This document shows positions 60,888 to 64,000 of a stretch of DNA of 64,000 bases, in pieces. The stretch lies in the NCBI GenBank assembly GCA_024742755.1, contig JANSXW010000017.1, positions 2,847 to 66,846 of the forward strand, given 5' to 3'. The DNA comes from a bacterium. Lineage in GTDB: Bacteria; Bacteroidota; Bacteroidia; Chitinophagales; Saprospiraceae. The notes under the pieces are model-generated. The model saw nothing but the letters and a program-made list of their open reading frames with translations, was not told the DNA's origin and ran no database searches. Each line of letters begins with the position of its first letter. The stretch's first letter is position 1. The translations under genes were made by a program, and so were the position numbers.

Positions 60888-61565
60888 CTAAAATAACCGC
60901 CCCTGCTCCCCAACCTTCTCATGCAGGTCGGGCGTATTGTTGCGCACGTTGTTCACGCGGTCAGAAACCTGGTATTTTTTGAGCAGGCCATCCGGTGGCG
61001 GCTGCAGCATATTCATGACTTCCTCTACGCTCAGGTCAGAAATCCAGCGCTGCTGATCTTTAGGGTTGGGCAGGACCAGGGGCATACGGTTGTGGAGGGG
61101 GGCAACTTCGGCATTAGGGGGCGCCGTAATGATGGAAAAAGTCTTCACCGCATAGTCGCCATCGTACCAGACATCCCAAATGCCCGCCATCACAAGCAGG
61201 CTATCATCCTGGGGCAGTATCCGGAAGGGCGTTTTCTGCTTGCCCTCCGTGCGCCATTCGTAAAAACTGTCAGCAATGACCAGGCAGCGCCGTTTGCGGA
61301 TGGGCACCCGGAAGGAAGGCTTAGCGCCAATGCCCTCCATACGGGCGTTGATAAGCTTGGAAGCATTACTGCTGTCCTTTGCCCAATGCGGAATCAGGCC
61401 CCAGCGGAAATAGCCGAGACTGCGGGGCTCTTCGTTCGTCAGCACATAGGCATGCTGCGTGGGGGCGATGTTAAAACTCAGTTTCAGGTTTTCCCCGGTC
61501 TCAATATCGCCCAGCTGCTGCCTGAGCTTCTCGGGAGAGGTCACAAATGAGAAACGTCCGCACAT
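60888..61565 (-). CDS. SOS response-associated peptidase (SRAP/HMCES/YedK family)
   Basis: N-terminal MCGRF, FNIAPT, WGLIPHW, INARME, RCLVIADSFYEW and HNRMP. Confidence 0.95.
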   Translation of the reverse strand: MCGRFSFVTSPEKLRQQLGDIETGENLKLSFNIAPTQHAYVLTNEEPRSLGYFRWGLIPHWAKDSSNASKLINARMEGIGAKPSFRVPIRKRRCLVIADSFYEWRTEGKQKTPFRILPQDDSLLVMAGIWDVWYDGDYAVKTFSIITAPPNAEVAPLHNRMPLVLPNPKDQQRWISDLSVEEVMNMLQPPPDGLLKKYQVSDRVNNVRNNTPDLHEKVGEQGRLF

Positions 61566-61638
61566 GTTTGCATCTTTTTGTTGGCTATGGGGTTGGAGCC
61601 CGGAGCTGTAAAAAACACTTTATCAAGGCATTCCGGCT

Positions 61639-62180
61639 TTATCCACGATTATCCACATGGTTATGCTATTTCAGATCGTTGGACAGGGCATCATTATTGG
61701 AACACAGCGTTGGGCCGCCTTGTTTTCAGGGTTTTCCACACCCACATTTCAGCCCCTGCCTAAAGGTAAGAAAACCAGGGGTTCACAAAAACGCTTTTCC
61801 ACATCAATTGTGGGCCGTGGCCTTGGTAACTGCCCCAATGGCCCACACTGGCCAAGAATGGTCATTTGCCATATGTGAATTTGCGTTATATCAAGGCTGC
61901 GTTGGGGATATCCACATCCGTTTTCGACATTCCAATAAGGCCGTTAAGGAGGTTGTGGAAATAAAAGTTACTGAGGCCTGTGTTTTTGAACAGGCTGTGG
62001 ACAAGTGGCCTAAAATCCTGAAAGCTCAGCAGTAAGCGATGTGCAAAATAAGTGCAAACTTCGCCGGCCTGATGTTAACAATGGATTAACCTAGAATTTA
62101 CATTGATTTTTATCCACCTTTCCACACTACTGATGATAATAAGGGAGATTAAAAAAATTGATAATAAAAACTATTAAAGG
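61639..62180. other. DnaA-box cluster with DnaA-trio element and AT-rich tract: candidate oriC
   Basis: Ten matches to TTWTNCACA with at most 1 mismatch, at 61639, 61649, 61732, 61795, 61908, 61921, 61954 (rev), 61996 (rev), 62110 and 62118. CTA-CTG-ATG-ATA-ATA follows the last tandem pair directly. Confidence 0.8.
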
Positions 62181-62228
62181 GGATCAGCTTCCATTTAGTT
62201 TACTTCTGCATGGCCAAACAATTGGATG

Positions 62229-62236
62229 TATATTTG
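62229..62236 (+). promoter_or_regulatory. sigma-A -7 box for ctaA (TATATTTG)
   Basis: TAnnTTTG upstream of the ctaA start. Confidence 0.5.
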
Positions 62237-62293
62237 TTCCCCATTTGAAAATACGATTTGGAGCGCAGTGCTCTACTTTATAAAGCAATAGAA

Positions 62294-63397
62294 ATGGAAG
62301 CAGTAACAACACCGCCTTCATCCCGGCGCACGTCCCCCGGCACCGCAAAAGGTTACCCTACGGCGGTAAAGGCCTGGCTGTGCATCGGGCTGTTCATGAT
62401 TTTTGTGCAGGTGGTCGTAGGCGGCATCACCCGCCTGACCGGCTCGGGCCTGTCCATCACCAAGTGGGAAATTGTCACCGGCACCCTCCCGCCCATGAAT
62501 GAAGCAGCCTGGGAAGCCGAGTTTGCGGAATACCGCGCTACCCCGCAGTACCAGAAAATCAATGAAGGGATGTCGATGAGCGACTTCAAGTTCATTTACT
62601 TCTGGGAGTACATCCACCGGCTGTGGGCGCGGCTTATGGGCTTCGTCTTCATCATTCCTTTGGGGATATTCGTGGCGCGGGGCATGGTCGACAAGCCGCT
62701 TTTAAAACGCCTGGGCGTCGTCTTTCTGCTGGCAGCGCTTGTGGCCTCTTTTGGCTGGATCATGGTCGCCAGCGGGCTTATAGACCGCCCCTGGGTGAAT
62801 GCGTACAAACTGACCATGCATTTGTCGCTGGCCCTCATCCTGTTCAGCTATTTATTCTGGACGACGTTGAAGGTCATGCAGCCCAATCCGGAAGTAATCC
62901 ACAATAAATTGTTGAAAAAGGGGGCAATCGCCATCACGGCCCTTGCTGCTGTGCAGATCATCCTGGGCGGCATCATGTCTGGCATGAAAGCCGGGCTTTA
63001 TTTCCCGACCTGGCCGGATATGAATGGCGTGGCGGTGCCGGAAGTTTTGCTTGCCGCTTCGAACTGGACTGTTGAAAACTTTGTGGATTACGATGCTACG
63101 CTTTTTATGCCTGCTTTAGTACAAATTTTGCACCGGACAACGGCTTATGTACTGACGGCGCTGGTTTTATGGTTTGCCTACCGTGGGCTGAAAGCACAAA
63201 CCACGGCGCATTTCCGCACCGGTTTATACCTGTTGGTAAGTATGTTGATAATACAAGTTAGCCTCGGCATCTTTACTTTGATCAACTGCGTGGGCACCGT
63301 TCCGGTCGGCCTTGGCGTGTACCATCAGGCCGGCGCATTATTATTTTTAAGCATCGTTTTATTTGTCGATTATCAAGTGCTGAAAACCAGCAACTAA
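62294..63397 (+). CDS. ctaA: COX15/CtaA family heme A synthase
   Basis: VVGGITRLTGSGLSITKW, FWEYIHRLWAR, GWIMVASGL, LTMHL, QILHR and YHQAGA, with multiple TM segments. Start at 62294 (or TTG at 62258). Confidence 0.92.
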   Translation: MEAVTTPPSSRRTSPGTAKGYPTAVKAWLCIGLFMIFVQVVVGGITRLTGSGLSITKWEIVTGTLPPMNEAAWEAEFAEYRATPQYQKINEGMSMSDFKFIYFWEYIHRLWARLMGFVFIIPLGIFVARGMVDKPLLKRLGVVFLLAALVASFGWIMVASGLIDRPWVNAYKLTMHLSLALILFSYLFWTTLKVMQPNPEVIHNKLLKKGAIAITALAAVQIILGGIMSGMKAGLYFPTWPDMNGVAVPEVLLAASNWTVENFVDYDATLFMPALVQILHRTTAYVLTALVLWFAYRGLKAQTTAHFRTGLYLLVSMLIIQVSLGIFTLINCVGTVPVGLGVYHQAGALLFLSIVLFVDYQVLKTSN

Positions 63398-63457
63398 CAA
63401 ATGTGGAAAAGTTTGTGGAAAAGTGGATGCCTGATTTCAGACTCTTTTTTCCACTAG

Positions 63458-63496
63458 AAATCCCCCGTTCAGCAGACTTGTCTGAACGGGGGATTT
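63458..63496 (+). terminator. intrinsic terminator after ctaA
   Basis: 15 bp stem AAATCCCCCGTTCAG / CTGAACGGGGGATTT followed by T residues. Confidence 0.8.
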
Positions 63497-63533
63497 TGCA
63501 TTTTGGAAGCGGCAGCGCATGTAGGCATGCTTA

Positions 63534-63650
63534 GACTATGTTTGGAGCGGGTTCGTCATGAAAATCAAGGAATTGTGGTTCTGGCTAAAAAAGATGACGC
63601 CAGGTTCATAAGTCCTTGATTTGCAATAGGAGTAAGCTCCAAACATAGTC
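63534..63650. mobile_element. 117 bp MITE-like element
   Basis: Perfect 15 bp terminal inverted repeats GACTATGTTTGGAGC / GCTCCAAACATAGTC, TTA direct repeats on both sides, and an internal inverted repeat AAATCAAGGA / TCCTTGATTT. Confidence 0.7.
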
Positions 63651-63669
63651 TTAGTCCCAGCTCTACCAT

Positions 63670-64000
63670 TTACGTTTTAATCAAATCCTCCAACTTGTAT
63701 TTTTTAAAGTGTTTAAACTTATCTCTTTTTAATTCTAAGTATTCATTCTTGACTTGAATCAGTATCCATGTCTTTGGGTCCAGGTTAAAAATCTGACTCA
63801 ACATAAACGATAGCTCAAAATTGACTTTGCGCTTGCCCGATAATATTTTATTAAAATTAGTGGGGTCTAATCCAATGTACCTTGCAAGCTCATTCTGTTT
63901 CAACCCCAATTTGTCGATATACAATCTCAGGAACTCACCTACTCTTATTATGTGGCTTTCATCTTCATGTCCGTCCAAATAATCTTCAATCTTTATTTGT
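63670..64000 (-). CDS. XRE/HigA-like HTH protein (5'-truncated by the window edge)
   Basis: The frame stays open to the edge (QIKIEDYLDGH...). HTH LGLKQNELARYIGLDPTNFNKILSGKRKVN..LS..L.QIF. Very AT-rich. Confidence 0.75.
   Translation of the reverse strand, partial: QIKIEDYLDGHEDESHIIRVGEFLRLYIDKLGLKQNELARYIGLDPTNFNKILSGKRKVNFELSFMLSQIFNLDPKTWILIQVKNEYLELKRDKFKHFKKYKLEDLIKT

Follow-up and report, generated by a model that had tools for sequence, protein, structure and literature searches.

A probable DnaA-dependent chromosomal replication origin between the SRAP and ctaA genes of a Phaeodactylibacter species

The basal unwinding system of bacterial origins was defined in Bacillus subtilis (Richardson 2016 and 2019; Pelliciari 2021, PMC8287927). 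In the search rule for this system, a DnaA box with at most 2 mismatches lies within 16 bp or less of three or more correctly oriented, consecutive NAN trios; the published trio motif is described as degenerate, and the modal spacer in Pelliciari et al. 2021 is 10-13 bp (PMC8287927). The origins of B. subtilis and Helicobacter pylori are bipartite, in the order oriC1-dnaA-oriC2 (PMC3479198, PMC4285127, PMC13643167), and a review of bipartite origins states that the spacer gene is 'usually dnaA'. Origins unlinked to dnaA are known at hemE (Caulobacter, Rickettsiales), hemB (Chlamydiae), dnaN (cyanobacteria), and gidA-mioC (Escherichia coli) (PMC4009838). In Saprospiraceae, the DoriC entry ORI94030375 is a predicted oriC of Haliscomenobacter hydrossis DSM 1100 (NC_015510), placed between the SRAP and ctaA genes (PMC8287927 supplementary table). 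A literature search on oriC in Saprospiraceae found nothing relevant.

The locus described here belongs to a Phaeodactylibacter species (Saprospiraceae, Bacteroidota), whose genome is a 436-contig draft of 6.95 Mb, estimated to be 92.5% complete. Within the window, i.e. the whole 64,000-nucleotide stretch that was analysed, the DnaA-dependent chromosomal oriC of this species very probably (about 0.88) lies in the gap between SRAP and ctaA, as the preliminary description had proposed. This reading is supported by the density and conservation of DnaA boxes, by a putative unwinding module, and by the GC-skew minimum in relatives. It is based on the excess of boxes, on a module that is unique in the draft, on conservation and synteny, and on the skew minimum of relatives; from these, we infer DnaA binding, unwinding, and initiation. 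The origin is of the ordinary DnaA type, and its site far from dnaA is normal for Saprospiraceae. The features of the locus are collected in Table 1.

Table 1. Features in and around the gap between the SRAP and ctaA genes (positions in the window).
Feature	Position	Strand	Remarks
SRAP (SOS-response associated peptidase) gene	60888-61565	-	Left flank; Pfam PF02586, E=6.7e-66
Probable main oriC subregion, non-coding	61566-62293	.	Top DnaA-box cluster of the draft
DnaA boxes TTATCCACG (61639) and TTATCCACA (61649), 10 bp apart	61639-61657	+	Genus identity 0.86, 0.91
Perfect DnaA box TTTTCCACA	61732-61740	+	Invariant in all 11 genus sequences
Perfect DnaA box TTTTCCACA	61795-61803	+	Genus identity 0.98
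Inverted repeat TGTGGGCC (61809-61816) / GGCCCACA (61840-61847)	61809-61847	.	Near-invariant columns in alignment A2
DnaA boxes ATATCCACA (61908) and TTTTCGACA (61921)	61908-61929	+	Genus identity 0.86, 0.91
DnaA boxes ATTTCCACA (61954, -), TTTTGAACA (61984, +), and TTGTCCACA (61996, -)	61954-62004		Identity 0.73, 0.87, 0.88
Perfect DnaA box TTTTGCACA	62040-62048	-	Genus identity 0.93
Tandem DnaA boxes TTATCCACC + (C)TTTCCACA	62110-62126	+	Head of the putative unwinding module; conserved in the genus
3-base spacer CTA and DnaA-trio-like CTG ATG ATA ATA	62127-62141	+	From sequence
AT-rich tract, presumed DNA unwinding element	62142-62190	.	From AT content
Candidate ctaA promoter TATATTTG	62229-62236	+	Fits the Bacteroidota -7 consensus TAnnTTTG; kept in most of the genus
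ctaA (heme A synthase, COX15/CtaA)	62294-63397	+	Right flank; Pfam PF02628, E=1e-85
Two perfect tandem DnaA boxes (TGTGGAAAA twice on the + strand, starts 12 bp apart)	63402-63422	-	5 bp past the ctaA stop
One-mismatch DnaA box TTTTCCACT	63447-63455	+	Kept only in the closest relatives
Terminator-like hairpin of ctaA (ATCCCCCGTTCAG ... CTGAACGGGGGAT, then TTTT)	63460-63498	+	From sequence

The Pfam matches confirm that the gap is bounded by the SRAP and ctaA genes. It is also the longest non-coding gap in the window, as had been stated, once the open reading frame at 61547-62035 is set aside as spurious: this frame is interrupted by in-frame stops in every relative, and it has neither a third-position substitution bias nor a Pfam match. 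Because an in-frame TAG lies just upstream in two genus relatives (G004 and G007), the start of ctaA was revised to the ATG at 62294, and the gap more likely extends over 61566-62293 than over 61566-62257 as first given. SRAP is transcribed away from the gap, and 2.7 kb of the contig are left to the right of ctaA. The intergenic gap is kept at 66-92% identity in all ten genus genomes. A scan of 61300-63700 against Rfam gave no match.

DnaA boxes were sought with the pattern TTWTNCACA with at most 1 mismatch, a loose pattern with 156 matches in the 64-kb window. Ten such boxes in about 490 bp had been counted at first; the count is 13 in 61607-62126, as compared with a chance expectation of about 1.3 per 520 bp from the density in the window, or 0.8 from shuffled sequence. 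The three perfect boxes reported at 61649, 61732, and 61795 all match, and a fourth, TTTTGCACA, lies at 62040 on the minus strand. The gap is the top-scoring 600-bp stretch across all 436 contigs. Two other box-rich contigs were dismissed as rival clusters: C180 is an array of TTTTTCAGA repeats, and C216 has 7 boxes on 1.3 kb.

In the alignment of ten genus genomes (A2), the box columns are 0.858 identical as compared with 0.73 in the remaining gap, a value reached by only 1 of 5000 random placements. Twelve of the 13 boxes are retained across these relatives; the one at 61607 is not, and probably arose by chance. To judge from this alignment, the boxes in the gap are under selection in the genus. 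The inverted repeat at 61809-61847 may represent weak facing boxes or a putative site for another protein.

The original description of the tandem pair at 62110/62118, of the triplets after it, and of the AT-rich tract is correct. On the bottom strand, the trio-like stretch reads 3'-GAC TAC TAT TAT-5', so that A is the middle base of every triplet. The module is of the kind that the search rule given above selects: TTATCCACC (1 mismatch) and TTTCCACA are followed by four to five central-A triplets on the bottom strand, and the spacer from the better box to the trios is 11 bp. The consensus of the trios is CTR ATG ATR ATA in the genus and CTG ATG ATG (ATA) in the family, and the CTA spacer varies among relatives, where it is usually GC-rich. 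With 78% AT, the 60-mer from 62119 ranks among the three most AT-rich of the 68-kb contig; those that start at 62135-62144 have up to 75% AT, a value reached by 0.34% of the 60-mers in the draft. A single site in the draft combines tandem boxes with a 3-nt spacer, four or more NTN triplets, and an AT-rich tail.

Like the incC/BUS of the B. subtilis oriC, the module has tandem boxes in one orientation and, after a short spacer, three or more trinucleotides whose central base on the bound strand is A, followed by an AT-rich element. However, its trios are 3'-GAC/TAC/TAT-5' and not 3'-GAT-5'; past the first triplet, they share no more than the central A with that consensus. A 3-nt spacer stands in place of the roughly 4 nt of GC in B. 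subtilis, and the gene alongside is ctaA and not dnaA or dnaN. The modules predicted in Chitinophaga pinensis, Niastella koreensis, and Salinibacter ruber (PMC8287927) share with it the order of a 9-mer box, an 8-mer box, a 3-nt spacer, and NAN trios; in Niastella and Salinibacter, too, 11 bp separate the better box from the trios. In these three, the spacer is GCC or AGC on the box strand and the trios are of the NAT type (3'-GAT TAT CAT-5'), whereas the present trios are of the NAC/NAT type.

The sequence features suggest how initiation might proceed. DnaA would fill about a dozen boxes over 61639-62126, with the tandem boxes anchoring a DnaA-ATP filament. The filament would grow onto the bottom-strand trinucleotides and open the AT-rich tract (about 62142-62190), the presumed site of helicase loading. 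This route of opening would be that of the B. subtilis basal unwinding system. Transcription of ctaA would head away from the opened region, and another, distal complex of DnaA may assemble on the boxes at 63402-63422.

The gene context had been called unusual, but it is instead the norm in Saprospiraceae, and it already appears in the DoriC prediction for H. hydrossis. At least 8 boxes are present in the kb upstream of ctaA at 78 of 80 Saprospiraceae loci, as compared with 17 of 80 for the kb that begins at the ctaA start. The unwinding module is found upstream of ctaA at about 57 of the 80 loci, where an A/T-rich tract also follows the trios; this number depends on the pattern, since a strict version retrieves about 14 loci and a looser one 60, of which about 3 look spurious. 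The ctaA-upstream cluster is absent in seven other families of the order, and the ctaA-adjacent context is limited to Saprospiraceae among 17 sampled families. SRAP adjoins ctaA throughout the genus and in at least seven other Saprospiraceae genera; where SRAP lies at other loci, no box cluster accompanies it. Overall, the comparison shows that the origin in Saprospiraceae travels with ctaA, not with dnaA or SRAP. It resembles the lineage-specific origins at hemE, hemB, dnaN, and gidA-mioC in its family-conserved position off dnaA, and differs from them in having ctaA as a neighbour.

The predicted H. hydrossis origin is among the closest described counterparts. It belongs to the same family and shares the SRAP-gap-ctaA context, the remote dnaA, and the boxes past the ctaA stop, as well as a box-box-CTG-ATG-ATG-AT-rich module next to ctaA (G213, contig C1, about 3,804,447-3,804,475). 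It belongs to a different genus, however, and its DNA cannot be aligned with the present locus by blastn. The DoriC site at 3,804,067 lies 555 bp upstream of the H. hydrossis ctaA and 3.8 Mb from dnaA. The published unwinding-site string was recovered at its exact published coordinate in G213; it was absent from a metagenome-assembled genome labelled H. hydrossis (L185) and from the other loci in that comparison. This published site, itself a prediction, is another, distal box and not the family-conserved module. The sequence comparison suggests that the published pick is not the conserved unwinding site.

The preliminary description had named a cumulative GC-skew minimum as a check on an origin at this locus. 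The check is positive at the ctaA-upstream locus in three relatives. On the 3.02-Mb contig of G012, negative skew between 190 and 1160 kb gives way to positive skew between 1330 and 2870 kb. At 1-kb resolution, the cumulative minimum of this contig falls at 1,242,000, with the ctaA start at 1,242,070 and the top box cluster at 1,241,400-1,242,000. On the 6.52-Mb chromosome of G424, at a coarse scale, the switch from minus to plus falls between 5.22 and 5.585 Mb, with ctaA at 5.605 Mb, and the switch from plus to minus falls at about 2.3 Mb, opposite ctaA; the 20 kb directly left of ctaA are already slightly positive. On a 442-kb contig of G002 (C18), whose intergenic region is 89% identical to the present one, the lowest cumulative value of the contig is at 317 kb, about 2 kb from the element at 319.3 kb. 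GC skew in the genus is weak (|0.01-0.03|). When the contigs of the present draft are ordered by synteny to G002, the skew is -0.012 in the left 100 kb and +0.023 in the right 108 kb, and the cumulative minimum of this scaffold is 12 kb to the right of the element. In H. hydrossis, sparse sampling in 20 stretches of 20 kb each yielded a noisy skew without a clean pattern.

The window contains no dnaA, as had been noted, and no dnaN, which lies on contig C310. A search of all contigs of the draft with the profiles TIGR00362, PF00308, and PF08299 found no dnaA, which is probably unassembled. Therefore, linkage was judged in relatives. In all ten genus genomes, dnaA is on another contig than ctaA, and in four chromosome-scale relatives from the family it is 1.15-3.8 Mb from the ctaA element. 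The claim that the origin is unlinked to dnaA thus holds in relatives, while the present draft has no assembled dnaA with which to compare.

DnaA-box clusters outside oriC occur in E. coli (datA, DARS1/2) and in B. subtilis. The present cluster might accordingly be a datA/DARS-like site for titration or reactivation of DnaA, or a DnaA-regulated promoter of the divergent SRAP and ctaA genes, with the origin elsewhere. The putative ctaA promoter within the same gap is compatible with this, and the boxes at the 3' end of ctaA might point to regulation specific to this gene. However, the cluster sits at the skew minimum in G012, with which the coarse switches in G424 and G002 agree, and it includes a module that is unique in the genome and that titration sites do not need. 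The draft is without any stronger cluster. Moreover, in other families, where ctaA lies off the skew/box locus, there are no boxes upstream of the gene and almost none past its stop, so that boxes do not accompany ctaA as such. The datA/DARS-like alternative is not supported, and we consider it unlikely.

It is still less likely that the working origin is a classical one beside the unassembled dnaA and that the ctaA cluster is a relic or a secondary element. A dnaA-adjacent origin is the commonest arrangement in bacteria, and the 600-bp stretch upstream of dnaA contains 5-9 boxes (1-2 perfect) at eight of nine genus loci, with fewer in G010. These clusters are weaker than the one at ctaA, however, and fit autoregulation of dnaA, and the surroundings of dnaA in 15 relatives are without a tandem-box/trio module. 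At dnaA, the skew does not switch in either G012 or G424. In G002, a 400-kb stretch around the gene has positive skew on its left and negative skew on its right, with the cumulative maximum at 143 kb, near dnaA; this region looks like a terminus and not an origin. A functionless pile-up of box-like words in an AT-rich promoter region, which the looseness of the one-mismatch pattern might suggest, is the least probable reading: the gap is the top cluster of 6.95 Mb, its boxes are preferentially conserved (1 of 5000 permutations), and the arrangement is kept across the family. By these conservation tests, the chance reading is refuted.

An oriC in the SRAP-ctaA gap would give a well-supported origin to a genus that is represented almost entirely by draft genomes and metagenome bins. 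It could be used for orienting assemblies and for growth-rate estimates from coverage.

What is new here is the conservation, in much of the family, of perfect tandem boxes directly after the ctaA stop, which hints at a bipartite origin. These boxes (63402-63422) face the upstream boxes, and two box subregions (61639-62126 and 63402-63422) lie on either side of ctaA, the candidate spacer gene. The 3' tandem boxes are present in all eight genus genomes with a parsed ctaA stop and in several other genera, including Haliscomenobacter (H. hydrossis). In the family as a whole, at least 2 boxes follow the ctaA stop at 42 of 75 loci and at least 1 at 56 of 75, and the spacing between the two subregions is conserved, with a median of 1248 bp. 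The tandem pair was not found in the seven other families, in which ctaA is not beside a box cluster; six of them have no box after the ctaA stop and one has a single 1-mismatch match.

As in the bipartite origins of B. subtilis and H. pylori, two box subregions are split by a gene of about 1.1-1.4 kb, the DNA unwinding element is in one subregion only, and the distal boxes face the proximal ones. Unlike in those origins, the spacer is ctaA, and the distal subregion has 2-3 boxes with a putative role. It is conceivable, although we would put it at somewhat worse than even, that Phaeodactylibacter and many other Saprospiraceae have a naturally bipartite origin in which ctaA, not dnaA, is the spacer looped out at initiation. 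If functional, this would be a natural split origin with a metabolic gene as the spacer, and it could interest specialists in replication; a split-origin arrangement with such a spacer was recently engineered in E. coli (PMC13643167).

Two further elements may concern the expression of ctaA. From its match to the consensus, TATATTTG at 62229-62236 is likely the ctaA promoter. The terminator-like hairpin at 63460-63498 was not reported by an automatic scan; it shows compensating changes in relatives.

The non-coding gap between a SRAP gene and ctaA is predicted to be oriC, unlinked to dnaA, with a probability of about 0.88 on the sequence evidence assembled here. An open reading frame overlapping the gap (61547-62035) was rejected as a gene: it has in-frame stops in all relatives, and both third-position bias and a Pfam match are absent. 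Since this frame is discarded, the gap is the longest non-coding stretch of the window, as the preliminary description had stated, and the second-longest measures 470 bp. An Rfam search of the gap region gave no match. The start of ctaA in the table was preferred because two 92%-identical relatives carry an in-frame TAG just upstream of it; the earliest possible start, TTG 62258, is probably wrong.

Features of the predicted origin and its flanking genes (window positions)
Feature	Position	Strand	Remarks
SRAP gene	60888-61565	minus	PF02586; left flank of gap
SRAP-ctaA gap	61566-62257		non-coding
Tandem boxes TTATCCACC and (C)TTTCCACA	62110-62126		last two boxes of cluster
COX15/CtaA gene (ctaA)	most likely from ATG 62294	plus	PF02628; right flank of gap
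Two perfect tandem boxes TGTGGAAAA GTT TGTGGAAAA	63402-63422	opposite orientation	5 bp past ctaA stop codon; starts 12 bp apart

A pattern search with the DnaA box TTWTNCACA found four perfect boxes in the gap (plus strand: 61649, 61732, 61795; minus strand: 62040) and nine further boxes with one mismatch between 61607 and 62126, while the expected number of matches in the same span is about 1.3 by the window's own density and 0.8 by shuffles. The three perfect boxes reported earlier were found again on the plus strand, but the total of ten with three perfect was too low, as there are thirteen with four perfect. The 600-bp stretch of the gap has the top box score in the whole 6.95-Mb draft of 436 contigs. 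The second-ranked spot, on contig C180, is an unrelated repeat: in positions 1000-1700 of this 3.4-kb contig, TTTTTCAGA words form a dense two-strand array, 17 of them within 700 bp, and are unrelated to DnaA boxes. The genus alignment keeps 12 of 13 boxes, and box 61732 is invariant in it; column identity is 0.73 in the rest of the gap and 0.858 in the boxes, and this box value was reached by only one of 5000 random placements of thirteen 9-mers. Two nearly invariant motifs other than boxes are also present, an inverted repeat TGTGGGCC ... GGCCCACA at 61809-61847 and a palindrome TGTTAACA at 62073-62080, followed by GGATTAACC; both could be sites for an origin-binding regulator.

Directly after the tandem boxes stands CTA CTG ATG ATA ATA. 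The bottom strand of these triplets reads 3'-GAT GAC TAC TAT TAT-5', and therefore every triplet has a central A. AT content is 78% in the 60-mer from 62119, which takes in the second box, the triplets and the tract after them and ranks among the three AT-richest of the 68-kb contig; 60-mers with starts at 62135-62144 go up to 75% AT, a value that 0.34% of the 60-mers of the draft attain. Tandem pair, triplets and AT-rich tract are thus all in place as first described. Under the search rule published for the basal unwinding system (Pelliciari et al. 2021, PMC8287927), a box of two mismatches or fewer lies no more than 16 bp from three or more NAN triplets in a set orientation, and the site fits this rule; measured from its better box, the spacer is 11 bp, which falls in the reported 10-13 bp peak (PMC8287927). 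The same layout of 9-mer box, 8-mer box, 3-nt spacer and trios is tabulated for the origins of Chitinophaga, Niastella and Salinibacter (table in PMC8287927). A pattern for the whole module has one match in the draft, at the gap, and none around dnaA in the 15 relatives examined.

The gap is kept at 66-92% identity in all ten genus genomes by blastn, which gave no match outside the genus. In a set of 80 named Saprospiraceae ctaA loci, eight or more boxes occupy the kb upstream of ctaA in 78 and the kb starting at ctaA in 17, and about 57 have the same module 100-400 bp before ctaA, in the form of a box, tAACA or CCACA, a 3-nt GC-rich spacer, CTG ATG ATG (ATA), a G run and an A/T tract. No box cluster was found upstream of ctaA in seven other families of the order. 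Throughout the genus SRAP adjoins the gap, as it does in seven or more other genera; SRAP genes located elsewhere have no accompanying box cluster, and the origin-side neighbour opposite ctaA in the family relative G012 is dtd. The predicted origin therefore stays with ctaA.

For Haliscomenobacter hydrossis DSM 1100, DoriC record ORI94030375 has an unwinding site at 3,804,067-3,804,093 (supplementary table of Pelliciari et al. 2021, PMC8287927). The published string was recovered at the exact coordinate in G213, 555 bp upstream of the ctaA orthologue and adjoining an SRAP gene. As this record lies beside ctaA and far from dnaA, a ctaA-adjacent, dnaA-distant origin in Saprospiraceae was already a database prediction, and the gene context, which had been called unusual, is normal for the family. 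The predicted origin is of the ordinary DnaA type in a family-normal context; with small corrections, what the preliminary description observed is confirmed, and its reading as oriC is supported. A ctaA-proximal module, TTCTCCACA TACCAACA CTG CTG ATG ATG followed by an AT-rich stretch, lies about 120 bp before H. hydrossis ctaA (1326-1354 of the fetched locus L189, about 3,804,447-3,804,475 of G213:C1). This module, and not the distal box chosen by the program (3,804,067), appears to be the family-conserved one. Origins unlinked to dnaA with lineage-specific neighbours (hemE, hemB, dnaN, gidA-mioC) are well documented (PMC4009838). Heme-pathway genes are origin neighbours in three unrelated lineages, hemE in alphaproteobacteria and hemB in Chlamydiae (PMC4009838) and ctaA here, which is probably a coincidence.

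GC skew, proposed earlier as a check, was examined in relatives because the draft cannot yield a chromosome-wide curve. On the 3.02-Mb contig of G012, 20-kb samples are negative at 190-1160 kb and positive at 1330-2870 kb; on contiguous sequence in 1-kb steps the cumulative minimum falls at 1,242,000, with the ctaA start at 1,242,070 and the best box cluster within 210 kb at 1,241,400-1,242,000. In a second family relative, G424, whose chromosome measures 6.52 Mb, samples between 2.48 and 5.22 Mb have negative or near-zero skew, and 9 of the 11 samples running from 5.585 Mb across zero to 2.16 Mb are positive; ctaA lies at 5.605 Mb, and the other switch, at about 2.3 Mb, is diametrically across the chromosome. 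In the genus relative G002, the minimum of the whole 442-kb contig falls at 317 kb, the element lies at 319.3 kb, and skew is weak (-0.008 left, +0.022 right). The draft's own contigs, synteny-ordered on the G002 contig, gave a skew of -0.012 for the 100 kb on the left and +0.023 for the 108 kb on the right, with the minimum 12 kb right of the element. Samples from H. hydrossis were too noisy to use.

The claim that dnaA is missing from the window extends to the whole 92.5%-complete draft, in which dnaA was not found; dnaN is on contig C310. The lack of linkage is supported by relatives: dnaA and the element are on different contigs in all ten genus relatives, and in chromosome-scale relatives ctaA and dnaA are separated by 1.15 Mb (G012), 2.5 Mb (G424), 1.6 Mb (the family relative G425) and 3.8 Mb (H. 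hydrossis, with dnaA at position 130 and a chromosome of 8.37 Mb). An origin adjacent to dnaA would be an alternative, and modest box clusters do lie upstream of dnaA (5-9 boxes, 1-2 perfect, in eight of nine genus loci), but those of G001, G004 and G002 (7-9 boxes, one perfect, per 600 bp) are without the trio module, and neither G012 nor G424 has a skew switch at dnaA. These clusters probably serve autoregulation, or are possibly a relic of an older origin. In G002, the closest relative with a long contig, the cumulative skew maximum on G002:C83:1-400000 (loci L191-L210) is at 143 kb, about 60 kb from dnaA at 204,900, and looks like a terminus; from this and the 3.8-Mb separation in H. hydrossis, some family members appear to have dnaA well inside a replichore or close to the terminus. 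Alternatively, the cluster in the gap could be a datA/DARS-like titration site. Because of the skew results and the uniqueness of the module, both alternatives are disfavoured relative to oriC at the SRAP-ctaA gap. In many related MAGs the contig ends a few kb or less from dnaA, suggesting that repeats flanking dnaA break assemblies there.

The tandem pair after the ctaA stop codon is followed by a one-mismatch box (63402-63455 overall) and a terminator-like hairpin. Every genus genome with a parsed ctaA stop codon carries the pair, with diverging sequence beyond it, and further genera have it again, H. hydrossis included. Across Saprospiraceae loci, 42 of 75 have at least two post-ctaA boxes and 56 of 75 at least one, and the proximal-to-distal box distance varies little (median 1248 bp, with an interquartile range of 1238-1299 bp). 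In seven families with ctaA not beside a box cluster no such pair was found after the stop codon, where six have no box and one has a single one-mismatch match. The pair may represent the other half of a split origin, and it is possible, if rather doubtful, that it takes part in initiation. In B. subtilis and H. pylori, bipartite origins likewise have split box regions, but their spacer gene is "usually dnaA" (PMC3479198, PMC4285127), whereas here it would be ctaA; engineered E. coli bipartite origins with a mioC spacer (PMC13643167) have a similar arrangement.
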